A stretch of 61,735 bases of DNA, counting the filler, from Stramenopiles sp. TOSAG23-6 (taxonomy: Eukaryota), in assembly GCA_900128565.1 (NCBI GenBank). It is 17 parts of 17 records of this genome, joined end to end, with 100 filler letters (N's around TTAATTAATTAA, not from the genome) between each part and the next. Parts side by side here need not be neighbours in the genome. Positions count along the whole stretch, not along the records: positions 7,326 to 10,884 come from LT637456.1; 16 more parts are not named here. One strand, given 5' to 3'. The notes below the pieces were generated by a model. That model did no database searches, was not told the DNA's origin, and worked only from the letters and a program-made list of their open reading frames with translations. A program made the position numbers and the translations under genes. Position 1 is the first letter of the stretch; every line of letters begins with the position of its first letter. This document shows, in pieces, positions 3,747-60,818 of the stretch.

Positions 3747-5238
3747 CATTGCTCTTCCTTCCTGCGTTAAAGTCAAATGCTGAGGACCTTACAGAATCTG
3801 CCATATACTCTGATTTAGAAAGAAACATTGTGATGAGATCGCAGTATATATTTTGGAAAAATATTATTTTTAGTAAAAATTTGTTAGGTACAAAATTTGG
3901 TACAAAAAAAAAATCGAAATTCAATTTTGAAAATTTTGGAAAAATATTATTTTTAGTAAAAATTTGTTAGGTACAAAATTTTCATAGTAAAAAAAATCGA
4001 AATTCAATTTTGAAAACGTACATCTAGACTCTCCAAATATATTTGATCCCATACCCCACAGACTTAATGCAGCACGATGTTCTAATGCTTCTCTCCATAA
4101 CTTTCTTACTGTACCTAGTTTGACTTTCGCTTTCGGATTTCCGTTTCCAAAGCACATCAATCCAGCCATTTGAATTTTACAAATTCCTTGAAAAAAACGA
4201 TCACCCAATTTATTCGCTTTCTGTGTAGCTTTCATATGTATTTTGGAAAAATATTTCAAAAAAAAAAACTAAAATTTGTTAGGTACAANNNNNNNNNNNN
4301 NNNNNNNNNNNNNNNNNNNNNNNNNNNNNNNNNNNNNNNNNNNNNNNNNNNNNNNNNNNNNNNNNNNNNNNNNNNNNNNNNNNNNNNNNNNNNNNNNNNN
4401 NNNNNNNNNNNNNNNNNNNNNNNNNNNNNNNNNNNNNNNNNNNNNNNNNNNNNNNNNNNNNNNNNNNNNNNNNNNNNNNNNNNNNNNNNNNNNNNNNNNN
4501 NNNNNNNNNNNNNNNNNNNNNNNNNNNNNNNNNNNNNNNNTACAAAATTTCGTATGAAAAAAATATTAAATTAGAAATTCATATAAACATACATAGATAA
4601 GACCTAGATGGATATTGGCTCCCTAATTTGGATAGATCTTGACGCCATAGTTTTCGAGTAGCCTTCAAACCAACTACAGCTACTGCATATTTAAGATCAT
4701 TTAGATCCATTCCTGCAAATGTTTTCGGATCTTCTATCATTTCATTATTCCAATTATCAGATTGTTCTTGATTATTCAAGTATACAGATAAACCCTCAAA
4801 CACTTGACGCATATCATTGCTTGTTTTTAAAACGTCCGTTAGGTTATTGCAATAGTATATCTTCACACTAGCTGCGGCAGCGTGAATAATACATTCATGC
4901 GGATTTAGCTCTTGTAGGGTAGAACCTTTCTTAGTCGCCATAATTTCAGCAGTGTCGTAAACACGTGGAATTACCATAAGAAGGTCACTTTGTAAAGCCA
5001 ATCGCTGATCACTTTTGCCTACCGCATCAAGATATAAAGCACAAGCACGGACCATACTATCGTCAGAAGCCAAGTCATCGACATAGCCCATGCGCATATA
5101 GTCAGGAAACTTTGACAAAAGACTGGTTGCTTTCTCTAAATTCTGGTATAAGGTGGTAAACAACTTTTCCGTAGGCCCAATATCAGACTTGGAGAGCGTT
5201 GCTAGTAGCTTCTCCGCATTACTTATCGACATTTTCAC
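3747..5238 (-). CDS. Multi-exon hypothetical protein (partial, interrupted by an N gap)
   Basis: ORF 4579-5238 plus exons at about 4022-4234 and 3747-3845, separated by family introns (TACAT|MKATQ; AGA T|GTACG...TATAT|AC). No family recognised. Confidence 0.5.
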
Positions 5239-5619: not shown

Positions 5620-7164
5620 ATGGAGAGCACGTCTTTGTTACCAAATAAGCGACCAAAGGAAGAAAGTCCTTCAGGGGTGCCTGAAATGCTCAGACGTGTT
5701 TCTGTCCATCGACTCCGTACCCAGCCGAGTGCACCGGAACACCAACACTCTAGAGAAGCTCGGCATCGTTCTAGAATCGTGCCACTTTCACCATCGACTC
5801 CATCTTCCGCAACTATCGACTTTCAAAAATGGAGTGTTAATGCAACAAAGGCAAAGATTATGGTATTACCAGCTGAAGTTCGTTTCAACCTTCGTTGTAT
5901 TGTCTTTGAGATGGACGAGTTAGCACTTGACCAATCAGCGTACTTTTCAGAAGAGATAAAGTGGCAGCAACGCCGCGATCTTGTAGTAGAATTACTATCA
6001 TCTGCATTAAATGATCACGATATGGAGCTCGATGCTGCTGTAAGTCGTGTTGTAGCACCAGTGTCATCAAGACGGTGGAAAGTATTCCGACAACGAACTC
6101 TTGATTCAAAGGTCTATAAGGCGTTTTTACAAATTGTGAGTGTACTATATTGTTTGTTATCATTTTATGAGGAGCCTTATTCTGGGAAATGGAGTCATAC
6201 AGAGATGAAGAATGCAGCTTGGACAGAATATACAGAGTATTTCATTCTTTGTATCTTTTTATTTCATGTACGTTTTCATCATTAGGGTTACTAGGGTTTA
6301 AAAAAAAAACATTTTGTAGTACATTTTGTACCTAACAAAAAATTAAATTTTCGAAATATTTTTTCACTGTACAGATCTTACTTGCCAAATCATACCAATA
6401 TAGTAAATGGGGAATTCTATTTTTGGTTTTATGGCTATTGTACGTGAGCGATGTGATCATGTATACAGTACATTCTTTAGGTTTGACTACATTTGATAAG
6501 AAACATGTACGTTTTCAAAATTGAATGTAAAATTTGTTTTATACGAAAATGTATACCTAACAAAAAAAAATTTCAAAAAAAAAAATATTTTTTCGCAATG
6601 TATATTTTTTCTTGGTGTAGATTATCAAGACCATTGCGCCCATTGTCTGTAGCGGCTTTATCACATACATATCGTAATTTATCTGGTTCTCTATTCCAAG
6701 TTTTACCTCATATAATGCCTGCAAATGTCATGATATGGATCATTATGCTTGCTTATGTACGTTTTCATTTTAATTTCAATTTTTTTTTTTTTGAAAATTT
6801 TGTACCTAACAATTTTTAGGTTTTTTTTTGAATATTTTTATATAATTCATGCTGTTTGGGGATTTCAAGCATTTTCTGATGATTTGACGTCGCAGTTATA
6901 TCAACTTGGAGGACCTGGTTTAGAAAATTTTAATACTGTGAGTCAATCATTTCTTGCAACATTTGTATTAATGAGTGAAGAGAACTATCCATATGTCATG
7001 TATCCAGCACAAATGGTAAAACCTGTCCATGCAGTATTTTATTTCACTTCATTTATAATATTGATGTTATTTCTAATGATACCATTATTATTAGCTATGA
7101 CATACTCTCAATATAAGAAGAATATGAAAAAACAGTATAAAGCAGAAATCATTCGTAAACACAT
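5620..7164 (+). CDS. Two-pore calcium channel (TPC family), 5' part, 4 exons
   Basis: LLSFYEEP, RLSRPLRPL (S4) and FLATFVLMSEENYPYVMYPA (pore) motifs. Introns 6268-6374 (GT-AG), 6507-6603 (GT-AT) and 6757-6850 (GT-AT) join the exons in frame. Confidence 0.8.
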
Positions 7165-7773
7165 GTATGATTTATTTTTTTTTTTAACAAAAAAATCGAA
7201 TTTATTTTTCGTACGAAATTTTGTANNNNNNNNNNNNNNNNNNNNNNNNNNNNNNNNNNNNNNNNNNNNTTAATTAATTAANNNNNNNNNNNNNNNNNNN
7301 NNNNNNNNNNNNNNNNNNNNNNNNNCTTTGATTACTTATAATAACACTTGTATTATATTTAAATACTCCTTACGTTTCTTTTAGATTAAGTCTCCACAAA
7401 ACGAATCTAATAGTTGTTGCGATTTTGGATTTGATTGTGAAGAACGGCACAGCAGCACTCTCTTCGGCAATAATACACAAAAAATCTCCATTCAAAGATC
7501 CGTTAGCCATTTTACGTACAAAATTTTGGTAGAGATTGATCATGGAGGTCGACAGTTTCAAGAGACAGGATCGACAACTTTTTGTTCACGTATATACGCA
7601 AACCTGCTTAGAAATCAAATCGAAAAAAAAAAAATAAAATATTATGTTTTTTGCAACACTCTTCCTTAATTTTTTAGCTACTATTAATTAGTGTCTTGCA
7701 TTACGATGTCATAGCAAGGTTTTCCCATTCACGGTAATTGCACAGCAACTGATTCTTTCGAGTCTTACTATTC

Positions 7774-8726
7774 ATGGAAATGTTATCTTCAGCGCAAGAT
7801 AATGGTGGGGTAGAGCCTCATTTAAAGTCTCATTCTGAAAAGTATGAGATATTTATTAGTAATCCAGACTTTAAATTCAATGCAGCGCACTTTATAGCTT
7901 ACAAAGGATATCGAGAACGTCTACATGGCCACAATTATCGTGTATCTGTTCGAGTTAAAGGGCGACTTGGTTCAGATGGATATGTTGTTGACTTTGGGGA
8001 TATTAAAAAGTCAACGAGACGAATCTGTAAAAGTTTAAACGAGGTATTTATTTGTCCTACTTTAAGTGATTGTTTGAATATAACTCATGTGAATAGTGTA
8101 GACGGTAAAGCTGGAAATATTGATATAGAATGTGAAGATGGTGCGCGATTTAGTTTCCCATTTGGTGATTGTGCCATGCTACCTATTGCCCATACTTCAT
8201 GCGAAGAGCTAGCGAAATATGTGTGTTTTCAGGATCAATTTTAAATTTATTTATTTTTCGTACGAAATTTTGTACCTAACAAAAAAAACAAAAAAAAAGA
8301 AAATATTTTCCCAAAATACATGTGTGTAATGTCATACTTGAAGATATGAAAATTTCCGAGTTACAATCCCGTGGAGTTTCTTCTTTCGAAGTCGGTGTCG
8401 CAGAGCGTAAGAATCAAATGGCACTATACGCTGTTGATATATTACCAAAAGTGTCTCAAAATAATTTGGTTCCACCTAATCTCAAAATGTCTGATTTGAA
8501 TCTGTCTGATAGAGAATCCAATCTCAAAATGTCTGTTTTGAATCAAGTTAGTCCTGGAATGATTACTACTATTTGTGATGAAAGTGATGATAAAAATATT
8601 GATGATGATAAAAATATTGATGATGATAAAAATATTGATGATGATAAAAATATTTATGATGATAAAAATATTGTTGTAAGCGATGGTAATGAATCAAACG
8701 ATACAAGTAGTAGCAGTGAAATATAG
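7774..8726 (+). CDS. 6-pyruvoyl-tetrahydropterin synthase (PTPS/QueD family), 2 exons
   Basis: FNAAHF, ERLHGHNY, GYVVDFGDIK and SCEELAKY motifs. Intron 8221-8321 (GT...CAT) joins ELAKY-VCNVIL. The tail has DDDKNI repeats. Confidence 0.85.
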
Positions 8727-8935
8727 TTCAGACTTATTTTATTCCTATGTCAAGTAGTAAAACGATTTAAAAATAAGTTTCATTTATTGTTTTGATGCAT
8801 CTTTAGCATATCTCAGGATTTTAATTTTTTTTTTATAGTAAATTTTGTACCTAAACAAATTTTTGATTTTTTTTTATCTCAGGATTTCAGGTAAAAATAA
8901 ATTGTTAGTTACATAATTTGGAACATGAAAAACAT

Positions 8936-10625
8936 CTATACCCATTCTTTTGGTTTACCTTGAAGTAAATCCAATGTTTTTTTTTCTGGACTATCCAACT
9001 CAGGAATATTTTTATACTCATAACGGACAGTAAGTGGAAGTGACATTAATACTGCTTCAATATCAACACCAGGTACATGTATTTTGAAAAAATATTTCAA
9101 AAAAAAATTTGAAAAAATTGTTAGGTACAAAATTTCGTACGAAAAAAAANAAAAAAATTCGNAANTNAAAAAAAAATAAAACATACAGCATATCCAAATT
9201 TCGTACCTCGATCATATACCAAGTTAAATTCAACATACCGACCATGCCTTAATGCTTGCCATTCTTTTTCTTTAGTAGTGTATGGCATATTCATTCGTTT
9301 TAATAAAATAGGCCAATAACAAGGAACAAAAGCTTTTACACAATCTTGTACAAACGATAAAGATGATGATTGTAGAGTTTGTTCATTTGGTGTAAGTAGT
9401 GTGAAACGATATTTTAAATTCGAAATTCGTTAGGTACAAAATTTCGTACGAAAAAAAAATAAATTTGAAATTCATGATGGAAACGTACAATTCTACTAGA
9501 ATCATCTCGATGTGAAAGAAACGAAAGTGCACTATTTACTTTTTCATTATTTGTATTATTATTTACTTTTTCATTATTTGTATTATTATTTGTTGTAACT
9601 GTATTCGTTTGTGATTTATATTGGTGAATATTCGTGAAATCGTCAAAAAATATTCCTCCAATGCCTCTCGCTTCTGCTCTTGCTTTGTTATAAAAATGTA
9701 TTTTGGAAAAATATTTCAAAAAAAATTCAAAAAAAATTGTTAGGTACAAAATTTTGTAAGAAAAAAAAAAAAAATTAAAACATACATATGTATCACAATC
9801 AGTTTTCATTATTGAGTATCGACTTTTAGTACTATTGTCATTTTTATCATGTTTATCACAGACATTTTTTAACGTTTTATGAAAATGTTTTGCATCGTCT
9901 TCAAATAAATAAATCGGAGTTAAATCAGTTCCTCCTCCAAACCACCAAGAAACAACTTCATCATCATCATCTGTTATTTCAAAATATCTATAATTAAAAT
10001 GTACAGTGGGTGCCATTGGATTGACTGGATGTAATATCCCACTTAACCCACACACCCACATTTGTAAATTAGGGTCACTTTCATGGCTAGGTTGTGTATT
10101 ACAAGTTTGCTCTTTCTTTTCTACCTTTTTATCCATTTTTCGCTTTTGAAGTTTTTCGCGCAACTGAGGATGATTTGCAGACATTTGTCGAATAATTGCT
10201 GGTGTAAGTGAGCGTGTCATGACTGTGAGACCAACTCCAGCTTTTTCAAAAACTCGACCATCTTGTAAAACTGCAGTTAACTTGAGAGCTCGTTTAGACG
10301 ATTTATCACGGCGCCATGTTACAATTTTCGTATCATCTGGAGCAGCAATAGACGCAGCTTTATCTTCTAATGAAGCAACACGATTGCATATATCGTGCTG
10401 TACCTGTACTAGTGTATTAATCATGGCTCTACGTGTGCTATTATTTCGAGATAAGTCGTTGCCTCCAAGAAAGTCTGACAATGTTGACGTATCGTCAGGG
10501 AGTGCAGGCGCACTACAACTACAATTGTCTGAATATTGACTTGTTGCATATATAGAGACGCCAGCAATAGCTGACGATGCAAATAACATACATCTTGAAG
10601 TCATCGCTGGTGTATTGTGTTTCAC
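8936..10625 (-). CDS. CPOX: Oxygen-dependent coproporphyrinogen III oxidase, 4 exons
   Basis: [61 protein letters not shown] and LMSLP motifs. Introns at 9696-9785, 9394-9488 and 9077-9186. Confidence 0.93.
9696..9785 (-). other. Representative family intron, GTATG...TACAT (GT-AT), 90 nt
   Basis: Removing exactly these 30 codons (VCF...KIH) restores the conserved HemF motif CDTY-FYNKAR.EARGIGG. No AG gives this junction. Confidence 0.8.
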
Positions 10626-11021
10626 TTTTTGGTGGTTGTAGAATAGTAGATATCGAAAGTTATATCATATAATATGTTTCTTTTGGCTAAGAGCGAAGCG
10701 TCCAGAAGTACTAGGGACTTTCCACTAGAGATTTTTTTTTTCTTTGTAGCCCTAACCCTAGGCTTGTCGTTTTGTGGTACCCGGTTCCATCGGTTCGCTC
10801 GCAATATTTGAATTTGCAAAAAGGTGAACAGTGAGCAGTGAGCGAAATAGTGAACATTGAGCGAAAAATGGATAAAAAGGTAGANNNNNNNNNNNNNNNN
10901 NNNNNNNNNNNNNNNNNNNNNNNNNNNNTTAATTAATTAANNNNNNNNNNNNNNNNNNNNNNNNNNNNNNNNNNNNNNNNNNNNAAAAAAAAGATGTTTG
11001 TTTTTCCTTTTGCATTTATCT

Positions 11022-18543: not shown

Positions 18544-18794
18544 AAATGACTCAATGATCAAACACAAACGTACATGGCACAGACCAAGAAGCTAATCGAC
18601 CATCTGGTGATGTTGTTGAAGTACCTTCGCCTAAATGTTTTTCTGCTAATCGTAGAAACATATCCCTACGTTGACGGTAAAAATGCGTAATATTGACAAC
18701 ATGTATTTTTGTATAATATTTTTAAAAATATTTCAAATTTTTGTTAGGTACAAAATTTCGTATGAAAACTAAATAAATTTAAAATTTTCGAAAA

Positions 18795-18825
<31 letters not shown>

Positions 18826-20133
18826 CCTTAAAAGTTTTTTTTTTTTGGGTAAAAAATTTCGTACGAAAAAAAAAAAATAACAAAAAAATAAAAACATCGT
18901 ACATGTAATTGTAAACGGTCAATTAACTGTGATGGTCCAGTTGCCCAACCCACACGAATTCCTGAACTTAATACTTTTGAAAATGAATCAAATCGGATAA
19001 CTCTTTGATCGATATCCATTGAATAAAATGATTTCATGTTTCGTGTTTCATTAGGGTTAGGGTTTTCATTACTAGGGTTAGGGTTAAATTGTAGATAAAA
19101 ATATGGATCATCTTCTAAAATAATCAAATTTTCACGTCTTGCTATTTCATATATTTTCTCTCTACGTTGACTGGATAGAGTAGCTCCAGTTGGATTTGAA
19201 CCATTTGGTATTGTATATATATTTTGGAAAAATATTTCAAAAATTAAAAAAAAAAAATTTGTTAGGTACAAAATTTCGTATAAAAAAAATATTTTGGAAA
19301 AAAAAAATTGAAAAAAAAATAAAACATACATAAAACACGAGGTTTTCGTTTTGAAGGGTATAATACATTCCAATTTTTTAAAACCTCATCAAGAATATCA
19401 GGTTGGAGACCGTTCTGTTTGTTAGCTATTATATATATATAGATTTTCATACTTGAGAAAAAAAAAAAATTTAGTTGTAAAAAAAAATTTAAAAAAAAAT
19501 TAAAAAAAAATTTTGAAATTTTTTTGAAATATTGGAAAGGAAACGTACTTCATCTGTATCAATACCAATTTGATTGATACCATATGGTGTAAGAAAAGCA
19601 AGTGATCCAGAATATGTTGGTGTTTCAAGGAGTAAAGAATCCCCAGGATTAAGAAGCATTTCGAAAGATTTTGTCAGAACATCTTGAGACCCTGTTCCTA
19701 CTAAAATACTCGAATTCTTGGAATGTTCTGATGGATGATACGTAGACTGGATGATCTCAAGTTGTTCAATGAGAGAAGGTAAACCGAGGGTTGGACTATA
19801 TTGCAAAACTTCTTCTAGTGTTTTTCCTTCTAAAGTAAAAGAAGAAGAAGATGTTTTGTTACTATTTGTCTTTGATGATTTTTTTACCATTGTTGTATGA
19901 ATTTCAATCTGGTCAAAAGGAAAAGTCTCGCTATTCGGCATTCCTCCACCTAAAGAAATCATACCAGGAATTTTTAATAGTGGTTGTAAAGCACGAATTG
20001 CACTTGGTTTACGCTGAAGAGAAGCCTTTGAAAAAAAATGTTCATAGTCATGGAGAGTTGTTGTTGAAGCATACATACAACGTATTGAACGATTGATCTC
20101 CATGCATTTTTGTCTTGAACGCAAAATCATCAA
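18332..20133 (-). CDS. AADAT: Kynurenine/alpha-aminoadipate aminotransferase (PLP class I), partial, last two exons in swapped order
   Basis: MISLGGGMPN, LQYSPTLG, YTIPNGSNPTG, ILEDDPY and DSFSKVLSSGIRVGW motifs. Introns 19415-19548 (GT-AG) and 19217-19329 (GT-AT). Confidence 0.88.
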
Positions 20134-32270: not shown

Positions 32271-32347
32271 TAGATTTCAGAAAAAAATCGTTAGGTACAA
32301 AATTTCGTACGAAAAAAAATCGAATTTGAAAAAAAAATAAAACATAC

Positions 32348-40265: not shown

Positions 40266-41476
40266 TTGAAAGTTTGCCCTGGTGTTGATGTAAATGGAGA
40301 GCCTATTATTGTTCGAATTAAAGTTCCAGAGTGTGAAGCTGGTTCAACCCTTCAAGTAAGAATATTAGTACAAGCTAACCCTAACCCTAAAGAATTAGTA
40401 CAAGCTAACCCTAACCCTAAAAATCCTAAAAATATGTTATTGAATGGGACAAAAATGATGGATCCAATCAGAAAGAAATCGATTATAGAGAACAGTACTT
40501 TATCCAAAAACCCTAACCCTAATGACATATATATACCGTATGATAATACATCACATATGAAAGAGAAAGAAAAACATTGTAATAAAAGAAAGCATCCTAA
40601 CCCTAACCCTAATCATTTGGAACAAAATGTAGGAAACCCTAACCCTAAAAAGAAAAAAGTAATGATTTCACTTAAACCAACGAAATCACCAATGATATCA
40701 GCAATGGATAAGTTAAATAAAAAAGTAGGGTTGTGTGATGACGTGGCATTACAAAATATGCAAAACACACAAAATGAAGAATTAATGGTACAAAAACAGG
40801 ATGACATAAAAAATAACCCTAACCCTAGTAACCCTACTCATACGTCTACTACTACGACTATACAACGAAATATTGAGAGTAAATTACAATTATATCAAAA
40901 ACAAATTGAGAAATTGGATCAATTTGATAATGATATTTCAAACCCTAAAAATCCTAAAAATCATATGAACAAATCATTTAAATCATCATTGGAAACAAAA
41001 TGTAAACCATTCTATCTTAATAACTCAACTGTAGATACTAACCCTAACCCTAATAAACATAAACATAAAAAATATGACAAACAATATGGAACCAACCAAA
41101 ATGATCCAATTAGGGTTAGGGTTAGGGTGGATGGATGTGATATAGATAGTATACAAGGTACTATGAAATCGTCTCAAACAAACAAAACAAACAAAACAAA
41201 CAAAATAAACAAAACAAACAAAATAAAACATATTGATGATGATTCATCACTAGGGTTAGGGTTATCATCCAGTGGTAACCCTAACCCTAATAACAACAAA
41301 AGAGAAGGAAATTTTTTACATAACAAAATTATTCCTGGTATTCCATCAATAAAATCAAACATTGATGCAACCCCTAACCCTAACCCTATCGAAGCCAAAC
41401 CAAAAGGAAAATCAAAAGGAAAAACAAAAGGATCTACAAGTGAAAGTGGTTATTGTCTAACAGGTCGTCAAATTCG
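40266..41476 (+). CDS. Low-complexity Asn/Lys/Pro-rich exon of unknown function, rich in CCCTAA/TTAGGG tracts
   Basis: 408-aa ORF bounded by family intron remnants; NPNP, LGLGL and RVRVRV all encoded by telomere-type repeats. Confidence 0.45.
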
Positions 41477-43775
41477 TGTATTTTTTATATGAATTTCTAA
41501 TTTAATTTTTTTTTTTTGGTTTTTTTTCGTAAAAAAANNNNNNNNNNNNNNNNNNNNNNNNNNNNNNNNNNNNNNNNNNNNNNNNNNNNNNNNNNNNNNN
41601 NNNNNNNNNNNNNNNNNNNNNNNNNNNNNNNNNNNNNNNNNNNNNNNNNNNNNNNNNNNNNNNNNNNNNNNNNNNNNNNNNNNNNNNCGTTTTAATTTTT
41701 TTTTTTTTTTTGGTTTTCATACGAAATTTTGTACCTAAGAAAAAAAAACATTTTTTTTTTTTTGAGTTTTTATTTTTTTTTAGGGTTAAGAACAATGTCT
41801 TGTATACTCTTACTATACCAAGATAAACAAAATCATAAAACATTTTACACAAACAACAAATATCTAATTTTTTGTTCTTTTCTACATGTATATACAAACA
41901 TTATATGCAGTTGGATCAAAATTGATGGAAATAAAAATGTAAAAATTTTAAAATCTATGCGTGGTAGACGGCCTGGTGGCAAAGTGTATAGGAATGACAC
42001 TGAAATCTCTCTCTCTGATGTTAAATGTATGTTTTTTTTTTTTTTTTAAAAAAAAAATCGATTTTTTTTTGGTTTTTTTTTAAAAAAAAAATCGATTTTT
42101 TTTTGGTTTTTTTTTAACAAAAAAATCGATTTTTTTTTTGGGTTTTTTTTTTGGTTTTTTATAAAAATTTTGTACCTAACGATTTTTTTTTGAAATCTCT
42201 CTCTCCGATATTAAATCAGCTTCGACGACAACAGAATTGTTCAAAGCACTACAAAACTTTCAAACGGTTATAGACAAAAAAACTTCAATTAAATGGATAT
42301 ATTGATTCAAAACTCTTAAAAATTGTATCACAAACATTAGAAAAAAGCAAAACTGAAATTTGGACTCCTGAAATTTCAGAGAAAATTACATATTTATTTA
42401 AGCGTTTAGAACCATTTTGTATTGATCCTGATCATGATAAAATGGATGAATGTAAAGCAAAACAAAAGACTTATTCCAATAGTGTGTGGCCAACTCATGA
42501 AGTTTGTTTTCATCATGAATTTTTTTTATTTTTTTTTTTTCATAAAGAATTTTTTTTTTATTTTTTTTTCATCATGAATTTAATTCCAAAATGTNNNNNN
42601 NNNNNNNNNNNNNNNNNNNNNNNNNTTTTTTTTATTTATTTTTTTTTTTTGAGTATGTACCAATGTACCATTCATTCATCATGATAAAAACATCAATCAA
42701 TTTTGAATTCTTATTTCTCAATATGATACCTTTTTTAACATATTTTCTTCATAATAGTGTAAATTAAATGAAACACCACAAAATGTTGCTTTAAAATATT
42801 TCGTTGATTTGGAATCTCTTTTAATAATTAATAGAATTATATACAAAAATCTCTCTTCTACGTCAAAGCTACGTGAACACACAGTGTATGTTTTATTATT
42901 ATTTTTTTTTTTACAAAAAAATCGAATTTTTTNNNNNNNNNNNNNNNNNNNNNNNNNNNNNNNNNNNNNNNNNNNNNNNNNNNNNNNNNNNNNNNNNNNN
43001 NNNNNNNNNNNNNNNNNNNNNNNNTTAATTTTTTTTTTTTAAATATTTTTCTACAATACATACTTTGGTTACCTAGACAATTCCATAAAAGTAAAAATGA
43101 TAATAGTTTAGTACAAAGAGAAAAGCAACTCATGAAAGGAGCTTTTCTCGATACTGAGGATCCTAACCCTAATTCTGCTGATGTCAACCCTAACCCTAAT
43201 AATCAAAATTCAAACATTTCAAAAAAAACAAATATTGATAGTTCTATTGATAGTTCTATTGATAGTTCATTAACTCTGTCAGATGAAACACATGAACAAT
43301 TGGATAATAAAAAAACACAAATAATGATTGAGCAAAACAGAGAAAAACAACATACTACTCCAACTAATGTACATTTTCATCCTTCCTGTTAACCCTAACC
43401 CTAATTTTTATTTATTTTTTATATTTTAAAATCTAAAAAATTTTTTTTTTTTTTTTGTTTCTGTAAAAAAAAACACAAAAAATAAAAATTGTACCTAATT
43501 TTTTTTTTTACACTACAAGAGCAATTCACACACAGTAAAGGTCTACTATATTGCATATGATAATGAAACACCAAAACTAATCTCAAATGTATGTTTTATT
43601 TCTTTTCAATTTCGAATTTATTTTTCGTACGAAATTTTATACCTAACGATTTTTTTTTGAAATATTTTTCCAAAANNNNNNNNNNNNNNNNNNNNNNNNN
43701 NNNNNNNNNNNNNNNNNNNTTAATTAATTAANNNNNNNNNNNNNNNNNNNNNNNNNNNNNNNNNNNNNNNNNNNN

Positions 43776-52657: not shown

Positions 52658-54404
52658 ATGAACTCGACTGTACAGACACAATCGAAAATACGTGACTCCA
52701 ATTGCGCCTTTTCGCACGTTGATTTTAATGTTATTGCAAATCTAGGTTTCGGCGAAACAATTCGGGTATGTGGACATGTTCCTGCGTTAGGTTGTTGGGT
52801 ACCAAATGATGGTGTCCCCCTTGTGACAACTCCCGAAAGCCATCCAATGTGGTACACAGCTCGCCCGGTGGCTCTCTCCCGTGGTGAAGTTGTAAAATAT
52901 AGGTACGCATTATTTGTAGCTGGTGAATTTGATCGATGGGAAGATTCCGAAAACTCAAGAGTTCGTGAATTGCGTCTCACAGAAGATATGCAAGTTTGGT
53001 GTGTTCAAGACCGTGTTGATATTAAGAATCGAGCTCGAGTGAATATTCCTGAATCTGCTCTGCATCAACAATTACTAAAGAAAAGACTGTCACCCAGCAC
53101 AAAGTCATTCTTATCACCGCTTATACAACAGCAACGTAAAGCAATAGAAACATCTCAGTCTTCTGTCACTGCACCTGGTGAACCAGCTGAACATCAGTCT
53201 GTACATTCAAACCTTTCAAATACTTCGCTAATGAACCCTAACCCTAATAAGCTCACATTGCCTACATCGATTAATTCTGAAACTGATAGTTCTGTGTATT
53301 CTGGCCCAGTGATTGATGGAGAAAGACTACAACGTTCAAGTATATATTCGACATCTAATCCACTTCAAGCACCACCATCGTTCAGCACAGCAACCGGATT
53401 ACACAGAAATGTAGCAAATAGTGATGAAGATATTAGTATTGGTCGAAATGATGGCATTTTAATTATTGTTCTTTATCTACCAGTACACATTGTTCGTGAA
53501 CCGGGTACTAAAGAGTGGAGCGTAACTTGGGATGGGAACAGCTTACTTGCAAGAAAAAAAACAACAATTGCAGACAAATTGAGATTTCTTTGGATTGGAA
53601 TGCCAAAACTTCCTCCTGATACAAAGTACACACATCGTGAACGAATGGAAATTACAGTGGCGTTAAGTAAACTTCGTTGTATTCCTGTGTTTGCAAAACT
53701 GTCCACCAGAAAACTTCATGAAGAATATTGCCGTAACACTTTACATGTATGTCAAATGTTTTTTTCATTTTCCATGGATTGATTTTTCATACGAAATTTT
53801 GTACCTAACGATTTTTTTTGAATGTAATTTTTTTTTGGTTTTTTTTTTGGTTTTTTTTTGTTTTTTTTTGTTTTTTTTTTAGTTTTCGTACGAAATTTTG
53901 TACCTAACAATGTTTTTTTATGATTTCATGTTTTTTCACAATATATGATTTATTTCATAATGTCATTGATGTATACGCTAAATTACCAACTCGCTGGTGT
54001 CGCAGAAAAGATCAAAATAATGACTGGCAAGGATACACTGCGTTAAATCAAATTTTTGCCAACAAAATATCTGAAACGTATGATGAAGGTGATTTTATAT
54101 GGATACAGGATATTCACTTTTTGGTGTTACCTTCTTTTGTTGCTCGTAAACTTCCAAAATCGAATATCGGTTTATATTTATGTACGTTTTCATTTCAATT
54201 TCAAAATTTTTTTTTTATAGTAAATTTTGTACCTAACGAATTTAAGTTTTTTTTTTGAAATATTTTTTCATAATCCAGATTCGCCGTTTCCATCATCAGA
54301 AATATTTCGAACTCTTTCAGTAAGGGATAAACTTTTACGTGGTATGCTCAACGCGGATCATTTGGGATTTCCTTTATTTGAATACACAAGGCATTTCTTA
54401 GCTT
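52658..54404 (+). CDS. CBM20-fused trehalose-6-phosphate synthase (GT20), 5' part
   Basis: FGETIRVCGHVPALGCW (CBM20), WIQDIHFLVLPSF and SPFPSSEIFR..LLRGMLNADHLGF motifs. Introns 53747-53946 (GT-AT) and 54182-54278 (GT-AG). Confidence 0.88.
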
Positions 54405-54627: not shown

Positions 54628-55587
54628 AAAAAAAAAAAAAAAACACAAAAAAAAAAATATGTTTCACAATATATGAATTACTATTTCACTTGATTGAAGA
54701 GAGATGGATAAAGAAAAAAAAATCATATTGGTGGTCATATCTTAATACCTTACCACTACCTCATCAGCAGCAAAATCCTTTATATTTCAATAAAGACGAA
54801 ATTCGTGGATTGAAAGGATCGACGATGGAAATCGATGTAATTGAGTATCAAAATTCTGTTTCGACAATGTTTACCTTTATCAAAAAACGTGTTTTTGATA
54901 AATTTCCTGAAAATTTTCCTGCAAAATATTTCAACTTGGATACGTATAAATGGGCGACAGCAATACTCAATAGTCAAAGTGTATGTTGTTTTTTTTTCGT
55001 ACGAAATTTTGTACCTAACAAAATATTTTTTTTTTTTTTTTTGGATAAATTTTTCTTAGGTTTAGGTACAAAATTTTTTTACCAAAAAAAAAAAAAAAAA
55101 AAAAAAATTTTTTTTTTTTTTTTTTTTTTTTGGTAAAAAAATTTTGTACCTAAACCTAAGAAAAATTTATCCAAAAAAAAAAAAAAAAATATTTTGTTAG
55201 GTACAAAATTTCGTACGAAAAAAAAACAACATACACTTTGACTATTGAGTATTGCTGTCGCCCATTTATACGTATCCAAGTTGAAATATTTTGCAGGAAA
55301 ATTTTCAGGAAATTTATCAAAAACACGTTTTTTGATAAAGGTAAACATTGTCGAAACAGAATTTTGATACTCAATTACATCGATTTCCATCGTCGATCCT
55401 TTCAATCCACGAATTTCGTCTTTATTGAAATATAAAGGATTTTGCTGCTGATGAGGTAGTGGTAAGGTATTAAGATATGACCACCAATATGATTTTTTTT
55501 TCTTTATCCATCTCTCTTCAATCAAGTGAAATAGTAATTCATATATTGTGAAACATATTTTTTTTTTTGTGTTTTTTTTTTTTTTTT
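54628..55587. repeat. Perfect 960-bp palindrome duplicating a SET-protein exon (likely amplification/assembly fold-back)
   Basis: ORFs 54690-55136 (+) and 55079-55525 (-) are identical; the centre is a polyA/polyT run at about 55107. Confidence 0.9.
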
Positions 55588-55903
55588 ACAAAGATTCAAA
55601 AAAAATCGTTAGGTACAACATTTACTATGAAAAAAAAAAATTGAAAAAAAATTAAAAACATTTAAAAAAATAAGGGTTAGGGTTAGGGTTGATGAAAAAG
55701 GAACATACATGATGAGAATCACCTTGTGGAAATTCAACTCTCAATTTTTTCAAAGCTGGTGCAATTAAATTACTGTTTTGAAGTGCTGAAAATGACGTCA
55801 TATACATTCTTTGAGGAAGAACTAAATAATTTTTACCTATACTGATATTTGATGTACTAATCACCGAAATTAAAAGTCCGCCTTTTTGAACTGCCGTTTT
55901 TAC
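55233..55903 (-). CDS. SET-domain (Rubisco-LSMT/SETD3-like) methyltransferase exons
   Basis: LVLPQRMYMT, GDSHH-ELLFHLIEER, SYWWSYLNTLP, PLYF..EI..LKGS and YKWA..ILNS motifs. Confidence 0.72.
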
Positions 55904-58989: not shown

Positions 58990-59159
58990 CACTATTAAGC
59001 GTTTTAGCTTTGCTTTTTATGTAACAACAAGAGCTTGAAGCTTTCCGGTCAAGAAATGAAATGACTTACTTTAGTTTTAGTTAGTTACGAACAATTTTTA
59101 ATATGACCCGTTCGTTCGAACGTTGTTGTTTCAACTTTCAAGTTCTTGCCGTGTTTGAC

Positions 59160-59433
59160 CAAGGTTATAGAATTGGGAAGGAATGACACGAAATTTGAAA
59201 AAAAAAAATAATTCACCTACCAAAATTTCATACCTAAAGCAGAACACGAAATCCTGCTGGAATCATCTTTAGCAACTCAAAAATAATTGAATTTACTATA
59301 AAACCAATTTCAAATTTATTATTTTTTTTTTTGCTACAAAATTTTTGTACTTAACAATTTTTTTTTATTTTTGAGTTGCTAAAGATGATTCCAGCAGGAT
59401 TTCGTGTCATTCCTTCCCAATTCTATAACCTTG
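59160..59433. mobile_element. MITE-like element with about 70-bp TIRs and a GTTTGAC target-site duplication
   Basis: CAAGGTTATAGAATTGGG... and ...CCCAATTCTATAACCTTG are inverted arms; GTTTGAC lies at 59153-59159 and 59434-59440. Confidence 0.65.
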
Positions 59434-59636
59434 GTTTGACCGTCGTTTAAACACTAAATTGATTGTAATACCAATTTTTTGTACCTAAAAAAACTAAATT
59501 CGAAATTCATTGGCGTTTTTTTCCGTTTCTTTAGAAATGTCGAAAAACAACTGCCCTACAGTTGTTTTTTGTACCCTACCCTAACCTAACCCTAATACTT
59601 TAAACCTATTTTCAGTATAGAGCTTCAGTTAAACAA

Positions 59637-60233: not shown

Positions 60234-60818
60234 AAGAATTGCCAGATGTAGGTGACACTGAGTCAAGCACCTAGCAAAAATAAGACATGGAAATCTACTA
60301 CTTGATTACTAAAATTTAATAGTAACCCTAATGAATAATAAAATTAAAATATAATTTAAAAAAAAAATATAAGGTTCATCTACTTGAAACATAAATTTAT
60401 TAATTAGTCATATAAATTCAAAATTTATTCTAAACCCTAACCCTAATAAATAATAAATAATAAAACATTTGAACTATCTGAAAATCCTTGATACAACTAA
60501 CCCTAACCCTACACATATCCCAAGTGCAATAGCAGCCATTTCATAGTTATTAATAATATTACTATTAAATTTACTTTCATCAGTAGTAGCCCTAACCCTA
60601 CCAATAGGCTTTCCATTCACAGTAGGGTTAGGGTTATAAGAGTAAAAAGATTCATTTTTTTCTTGAATTTTTTTTCGACAAATTCTATTATTCAAATGAG
60701 TTTTTTGACCATCTAGAAAAATAACCGTTGGAGATTTGTATTCATATTCATATACGGTGAAAAAAAATCATAATTTTTTTTTTAGTCAAAAAAATTTGTT
60801 AGGTATGAAATTTTGTAC

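Follow-up and report, generated by a model that had tools for sequence, protein, structure and literature searches.

The spacer between two convergent genes in the window (the whole stretch of DNA analysed, approximately 62 kb of AT-rich eukaryotic DNA including 2182 N) contains a structure that we tentatively read, at a little under an even chance, as a fragment of a known kind of element that lacks both element ends and whose insertion, along a side route of uncertain mechanism, produced a 13-bp duplication. The sequence TATCTCAGGATTT forms an exact 13-nt direct repeat at 8809-8821 and 8875-8887, with no other exact occurrence in the window, and brackets a 53-nt piece of a GT...AT intron family within a 209-nt spacer, 82 nt and 48 nt from the stops of the PTPS and coproporphyrinogen III oxidase genes, respectively. 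A sequence-only reading had described the locus as a core copy without donor and acceptor, flanked by 13-bp direct repeats and located between convergent PTPS and HemF genes, and each element of that description was confirmed: the repeats are exact, the family profile aligns with the copy over only positions 22-66 of 97, and Pfam matches to PF01242 (plus strand) and PF01218 (minus strand) place a gene, with its stop, on either side. The features of the locus are as follows.

7753-8726, plus strand: PTPS gene, two exons (Pfam match to PF01242; stop codon at 8724-8726)
8221-8321, plus strand: PTPS intron, a full-length copy of the family (RNA contig joint 8218>8320, 101 nt skipped)
8809-8821, plus strand: left copy of the 13-nt repeat TATCTCAGGATTT (exact match)
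8822-8874, plus strand: internal fragment of the intron family, 53 nt, consisting of T-run, core and T-run (profile match and identity to other copies)
8840-8854, plus strand: exact 15-nt family core AAATTTTGTACCTAA (core search)
8875-8887, plus strand: right copy of the 13-nt repeat TATCTCAGGATTT (exact match)
8891-8932, minus strand: second copy of the family, weak and degenerate, adjoining the stop codon of the oxidase gene
8936-10664, minus strand: coproporphyrinogen III oxidase gene, 3' part (Pfam match to PF01218 reaching the profile end; stop codon at 8936-8938)

The parent family comprises approximately 45 copies in 62 kb, nearly all of them genic; their ends form short inverted repeats, and their boundary repeat is short. 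In oriented copies, the unit is 90-113 nt long, starts with GTAYGTTTT, has a T-run on either side of the core and terminates in ..AATACAT, without AG. The core AAATTTTGTACCTAA, which includes a branch-site-like CCTAA (CCTAAAC at the flagged locus), has 55 matches at up to 2 mismatches in the window compared to 0.89 expected, a number reached in none of 100 shuffles. A profile of 97 positions, built from 13 full-length copies, returned 45 matches in the window at E < 0.001, and most of the truncated matches proved to be complete introns whose T/A runs are expanded, introns with two cores, or copies interrupted by N. The double-core introns lie at 3849-4021, 18718-18878 and 53769-53943, and a 49-nt exact repeat at 3850/3933 (83-nt period) represents a tandem duplication inside an element, a local rearrangement of the family. 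AG is present at the 3' end in 2 of the 13 clean full-length copies, while the rest end in AT; the AG-ending copies are located at 54182-54277 and 6268-6373, and perhaps also at 32275-32347 and 42161-42220, both 3' ends thus occurring in one family. Telomere-like CCCTAA/TTAGGG runs are scattered in introns and spacers of the window (40364-40640, 41110-41390, 60323-60600, 59570-59595, 6290-6310 and 55680-55700), sometimes as inverted pairs (e.g., around 41276-41390).

Removal of a family copy from RNA was observed in the poly(A) metatranscriptome run X6. The joint 8218>8320 in its RNA contig has an 8-nt register ambiguity that is compatible with GT at 8221 and AT at 8320-8321; therefore, the PTPS copy of the family is spliced out without AG. 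The 5' end of this intron is GTGTGT, and that of most family copies is GTAYGT. The oxidase gene also contains family introns (9078-9168, 9396-9488 and 9697-9770). In addition, the family unit has its own near-direct repeat around the core, such as GAATTTCAAATTTA and GAATTTCGAATTTA (seen in 9396-9488 and in other copies), and 10 of the 13 seed copies contain a near-repeat of at least 8 nt with no more than 1 mismatch around the core. Such element-intrinsic near-repeats could be mistaken for a target duplication.

The flagged copy shares with this family the core and flanking T-runs, but it differs in its terminal sequences, in genic position and removal from RNA, and in the boundary repeat of approximately 2 nt. 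Its aligned part (8822-8862, E 9.5e-5) covers model positions 22-66, with positions 1-21 and 67-97 missing, and neither the 5' GTAYGTTTT nor the 3' ..AATACAT is present; no GT start and no ..ACAT end occurs within 8809-8887. The fragment is young: 8840-8874 is identical to a minus-strand copy at 29283-29249 (35/35) and 8823-8854 is identical to a copy at 54205-54236 (32/32). Family similarity spans 8818-8875, reaching 4 nt (ATTT) into the left repeat and 1 nt into the right repeat, and no family match at the level of these two identities was found outside these limits. In agreement with these limits, contigs of other family copies in three runs diverge at 8819-8823 and at 8854-8875. Both ends of the fragment fall in T-runs, and the first T of the right repeat can also be read as the last T of the fragment's own T-run. 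Run contigs show that other copies of the same subtype continue with additional T residues and then CATACAT, indicating that the fragment ends within the T-run, just short of the natural 3' end. The last 4 nt of the left repeat (ATTT) are common to the 5' arm of the family, its last 9 nt (TCAGGATTT) bear a weaker resemblance to that arm (TCATGAATTT; homeology in alignment), and TCAGGAT occurs both in the left repeat and in the 5' arm of the nearby PTPS intron. The 53-nt fragment has no inverted ends, the T-runs at its two ends being on the same strand. No RNA contig of X6 covers or skips the flagged copy, which is not spliceable and is probably without function.

The remainder of the spacer was also characterized. 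The second family copy (8891-8932) has a core with 2 mismatches at 8905-8919 and a profile E of 0.089, and aligns with the family fragment at 59304-59393 with a score of 35, compared to a null 95th percentile of 26 that was computed for the left flank; the PTPS-oxidase spacer therefore contains two opposed family pieces. Three further proposals for the spacer were rejected. Removing the insert in silico does not restore an older minus-strand family copy, as the match becomes no longer and there is no gain in profile score (8.8 vs 9.7 bits). Homology of the left flank to the inverted-repeat arm at 59244-59286, with which it has an 11-mer in common, scores 22-23, against a null median of 20 and 95th percentile of 26. 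For a hairpin or terminator formed by the two opposed cores, the folding energy of -16 kcal/mol (z 0.19) was equalled in 107 of 200 shuffles. Rfam returned only a chance-level miRNA match, far under threshold, at the flagged locus, and Tandem Repeats Finder made no call there. Within the C-terminal extension of the PTPS gene, a coding tandem repeat at 8585-8673 with a unit of 18 nt (4.9 copies, 97% matches) yields DDDKNI repeats.

Coincidence is unlikely for the 13-nt repeat, given both its rarity in shuffled flanks and its rarity in the real window. When the 40-nt flank windows of all 45 family matches were shuffled with composition preserved, a common 13-mer appeared in 22 of 2000 sets (family-wise 0.011; per match 0.00024), mostly as homopolymers or T-runs; among 18,269 random placements of a 53-nt segment in the real window, 1.0% reached 13 nt, with true tandem repeats and the flagged locus counted among them. 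It could be argued that the repeat arose by chance beside an unrelated family fragment, given that approximately 1% of random placements reach 13 nt and that approximately 50 copies were inspected in the sequence-only reading. However, the 1% is made up of true tandem repeats and the flagged locus itself, the shuffle frequencies are low, and the edges of the repeat fall within 4 nt and 1 nt of the limits of family similarity; we consider this explanation very improbable.

The sequence-only reading had proposed a comparison of flanking repeats with shuffled controls for all non-genic core copies. Apart from the flagged locus, none of the 45 family matches has a complex flanking repeat of at least 11 nt. 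Longer repeats at those matches are homopolymers, element-internal repeats, tandem duplications of elements or a palindrome. Similarly, a list of exact direct repeats of at least 9 nt with spacers of 20-160 nt (762 pairs, of which 123 passed a complexity filter that also removed ACACGAAAT) contained no further unique-sequence pair around a core. A weaker case that had been put forward, ACTAAATT at 59453 and 59493, did not hold up: the letters are real, but 95.6% of shuffle sets and 20% of random positions yield a repeat of at least 8 nt, and this pair is due to chance or is intrinsic to the element.

A second structure of like shape was found at 59186-59252, where comparison with a paralogous arm shows an insertion that duplicated its target, the arm itself serving as the empty site.

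59186-59252, plus strand: second insert, with the 9-nt repeat ACACGAAAT (59186-59194 and 59244-59252) around 49 nt (repeat search and arm comparison)
59399-59407, minus strand: built-in empty site with the 9-mer once (other arm of a 71-nt perfect inverted repeat)

The arms of this inverted repeat (59158-59286 and 59365-59435) are otherwise identical, and the left arm alone has 58 extra nt, which correspond to the 49-nt insert (59195-59243) plus the second copy of ACACGAAAT. The insert contains a 17/17 match to the variant core of an intron at 60799-60815, and its first part resembles the 3' arm of the same intron. The inverted repeat (59158-59435) lies in the spacer between an OGG1-like gene on the minus strand and a Use1-like gene on the plus strand, and its 78-nt loop contains a family fragment without ends (profile positions 15-89). 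The two inserts differ in duplication length (13 vs 9 nt), in their end points and in the part of the element that was copied. These two events, from a single 62-kb window, constitute the entire sample of such inserts.

We favour, though as something less than an even bet, the explanation that an internal stretch of one GT...AT intron-family member was copied, as a short patch of 53 nt, into a break in the spacer, with the 13-nt repeat being a target duplication from the same event. A break with staggered ends would have occurred between ...TATCTCAGGATTT and CAGG. The 3' end, ...TCAGGATTT, would then have annealed to the 5' arm of a second family copy (..TCATGAATTT, then TAATTTTTTTTT..), to which it is imperfectly similar over 4-9 nt, and a polymerase would have copied approximately 53 nt through the core before leaving in the next T-run. 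Rejoining of the end 13 nt back, with filling in of the stagger, would leave the 13 nt on both sides. The template was probably DNA, reached by a template switch during repair or replication, and it is possible that it was RNA. Because the element's own ends are not used and the flanks are unlike those of full-length introns (approximately 2 nt, mostly AT), patch insertion would be a side route, apart from the element's normal integration.

Several observations support a copied patch: an exact, shuffle-rare 13-nt repeat brackets a young family fragment, a second event of like shape has an uninterrupted paralogous arm, the ATTT at the left junction is common to the family, and the fragment ends in T-runs. 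Additionally, the variable duplications (13 and 9 nt) and the different parts copied fit break repair and not a transposase acting on fixed ends. A cut-and-paste transposon or MITE does not fit, as there are no terminal inverted repeats, duplication length is not fixed (13 and 9), and the ends of the unit differ. However, microhomology at the return junction amounts to 1 nt, and 9 of the 13 repeat bases resemble the family arm, such that the left copy might belong to an older element. The second insert also counts against a copied patch in that it includes 6 nt (AGCAGA) without an assigned source and its parts are not in the order of a linear element. Of the two routes that had been suggested for creating duplications of variable length, staggered-break repair is the one favoured here, with the 49-nt insert and its 9-nt repeat as a second case, while TPRT-like insertion finds weak support.

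Insertion by a TPRT-like route would involve a nick after ...GGATTT that primes copying of an intron-antisense RNA, followed by a second nick 13 nt away. LINE-type insertions typically generate target duplications of variable length, and the 13-nt and 9-nt duplications are both within the LINE-type range of 7-20 bp. Read on the minus strand, the end of the insert is A10 then TTA, adjoining a duplication that starts with AAAT, and there are 4 nt of microhomology at this A-run junction. However, this route calls for an intron-antisense RNA, the A-run corresponds to the T-run of the element itself and is at best an ambiguous tail, and the second insert has neither an A-run nor a T-run at the end next to either copy of its repeat. 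Furthermore, no reverse transcriptase or endonuclease domain was detected in 51 of the 52 window ORFs of at least 110 aa (48 + 3 scanned; the excluded one is antisense to the oxidase gene). Taken together, we regard a TPRT-like origin as fairly unlikely.

It is also conceivable that the fragment was already in place and that only 8875-8887 is new, having been added during end joining as a templated insertion from 66 nt upstream, in which case no target site would have been duplicated. Polymerase-theta end joining is known to yield short templated insertions copied from nearby flanks, and this explanation fits such events. The family-arm-like character of the last 9 nt of the left repeat and the TCAGGAT in the arm of the PTPS intron would be expected if the left copy were part of the element. 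Yet there is no priming microhomology (the T-run end faces ...TTTAGCA upstream of 8809), and strong degeneration would have to be assumed for the 5' side next to a core and 3' side that show full identity to other copies. In the second case, the empty arm shows that insert and duplication arrived together. A pre-existing fragment is the simpler explanation, yet it leaves the second case unexplained, and we judge it unlikely.

The patch-copy explanation must also be weighed against the possibility of an artefact, as the assembly contains one near-certain artefact and template switching during amplification could mimic the signature. Parts of the window are contained in 16 runs, four of which were examined (X1, X3 and X4 as DNA contigs; X6 as RNA contigs). 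An independent X1 contig spans the left junction (8625-8848) with zero differences and a depth of 64.6, compared to 55-61 in neighbouring contigs, and reads therefore support the left junction at full depth. No contig in the four runs bridges the full 8809-8887, as contigs break in the high-copy core, and the right junction is known from the window assembly alone. The joint 8821>8888 that would mark the empty form was not seen in the four runs, X3 and X4 being without cover at 8695-8784. A 24-mer across the right junction had 0 matches in metagenome contigs. A degenerate 20-letter core pattern was found at 78 metagenome loci, none of which exceeded the core itself in the family profile; the 7 of these 78 loci that were inspected were unrelated, three of them being one coding stretch that is apparently bacterial. 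The source organism seems to be absent from the metagenome collection.

The near-certain artefact is a perfect palindrome at 54628-55587, in which two 480-nt arms (960 bp) are 100% complementary with no spacer, immediately following an N gap. Exon-like sequence and a portion of a family intron are repeated there in inverse orientation, and the palindrome is most simply explained as a product of amplification or assembly; unusual structures in this window therefore need care. The flagged structure could likewise have resulted from a double template switch during whole-genome amplification or from mis-assembly via the high-copy core. The best-matching DNA runs are small and organism-labelled, which would be consistent with amplified single cells, and the window also contains the palindrome and 2182 N. 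Template switching in vitro also leaves junction microhomology, and that at the flagged insert fits such an origin. However, the left junction is present in the X1 contig at the depth of its neighbours with no empty form reported, the flagged locus lies in mid-contig, an assembler that uses words of approximately 31 would not be misled by a 13-mer, and a return within 13 nt of the departure needs two coordinated switches. We therefore consider an artefact improbable.

The sequence-only reading had gone further, proposing that the core is itself an insertion unit and that such insertion could be how the introns arise. Within the window, an origin of introns by this route is not supported, since clean introns carry boundary repeats of approximately 2 nt, mostly AT, near the control mean. 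Measured as the number of positions over which intron borders can slide, the total boundary repeat of the 13 clean introns averages 2.9 nt, compared to 2.4 nt for 156 mismatched 5'/3' pairs, and is 5 nt or less in 12 of the 13. Nine of the 13 clean full-length introns have only a dinucleotide in common at their borders (8 AT, 1 TT). The one intron that reaches 8 nt is the PTPS intron (8221-8321), with the boundary repeat ATGTGTGT; the maximum among the 156 mismatched controls is 6. Nor was the core borne out as a defined unit of insertion, as the two inserts differ in their end points and no other complex flanking repeat of at least 11 nt was found.

A small mobile core that generates variable duplications and seeds introns would account for the presence of the core in both duplication-flanked inserts and for the 8-nt ATGTGTGT, which exceeds the boundary repeats of all 156 mismatched pairs. 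Against this, the two inserts have no common ends or content, 44 of the 45 family matches are without a complex flanking repeat, the boundary repeats of nearly all clean introns are short, and the conserved intron ends (GTAYG.../...ATACAT) would not be supplied by a unit consisting of the core only; we regard this full proposal as highly doubtful. A related possibility, also unlikely in our estimation, is that the family has a second, end-independent mode of spread, in which core patches are copied from RNA or DNA into staggered breaks with duplications of 9-13 bp, and that some introns started in this way. If so, the duplication or adjacent bases could supply new intron borders when a patch landed in a gene, and the PTPS intron, with its 8-nt ATGTGTGT, would be a candidate for an intron of such origin.

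How repeat-derived introns spread is debated, with transposase activity, reverse splicing and break repair all under consideration. The two loci described here suggest that pieces of one intron family may also be copied into breaks outside genes, leaving variable duplications, and the combination of patch and variable duplication is a concrete signature that can be counted genome-wide. On present evidence, the patch inserts are a by-product and not the origin of introns. It is also important to note that a flanking repeat near an intron copy need not reflect the main mode by which the family spreads.

Several known systems resemble the flagged structure in part. Templated insertions arising from template switching or polymerase-theta activity consist of a patch taken from elsewhere, with microhomology at departure and a short duplication when the return falls behind the departure point. 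The flagged structure, read as a copied patch, agrees in having microhomology where copying would have departed and a short duplication beside it; however, templates of such insertions are usually nearby, while the template here would be another copy of a dispersed repeat. LINE-driven retroposition (SINEs and processed copies) produces variable target duplications of 7-20 bp and truncated inserts, both of which are seen here, but a clear 3' A-tail is missing (ambiguous in one insert and absent from the other) and the template would be antisense to the intron.

Introner elements are intron families with transposon-like character, found in Micromonas, Aureococcus, Symbiodinium, Chrysochromulina and others, with target duplications of 3-9 bp that are fixed within a family and were seen in 49 of 130 assessable families, and with known copies outside genes (PMC9860276, PMC11282704). 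The parent family is similar to introners in that it has approximately 45 look-alike copies, almost all genic, whose inverted ends and boundary repeats are short, but it ends in AT and not AG, and the flagged copy differs in having a 13-bp duplication and no element ends and in not being an intron. The literature searched contained no paper pairing introners with GT-AT borders. Fritillaria borealis has non-canonical, MITE-derived introns with AG-AC and AG-AT borders (PMC11282704). The parent family resembles the introns of F. borealis and Amoebophrya in being repeat-derived and in having inverted ends, short repeats at the boundaries and borders other than GT/AG (PMC11282704); those introns nevertheless have other border dinucleotides, belong to other organisms and are uninformative on fragments without ends and with long duplications.

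The new introns of Daphnia pulex are flanked by direct repeats of 4-12 bp that have been ascribed to repair of staggered double-strand breaks (PMC4202315). The inserts described here are similarly flanked by direct repeats of variable length (13 and 9 bp), and a fill-in reading is applied to them as it was to the D. pulex inserts. In contrast, the D. pulex inserts are exonic, became introns and involve no dispersed repeat family (PMC4202315), whereas both inserts in this window are non-coding pieces of an intron family, without intron ends and not spliceable. By analogy, the flagged structure would work like the D. pulex neointrons, built from an introner-like piece but itself no intron.
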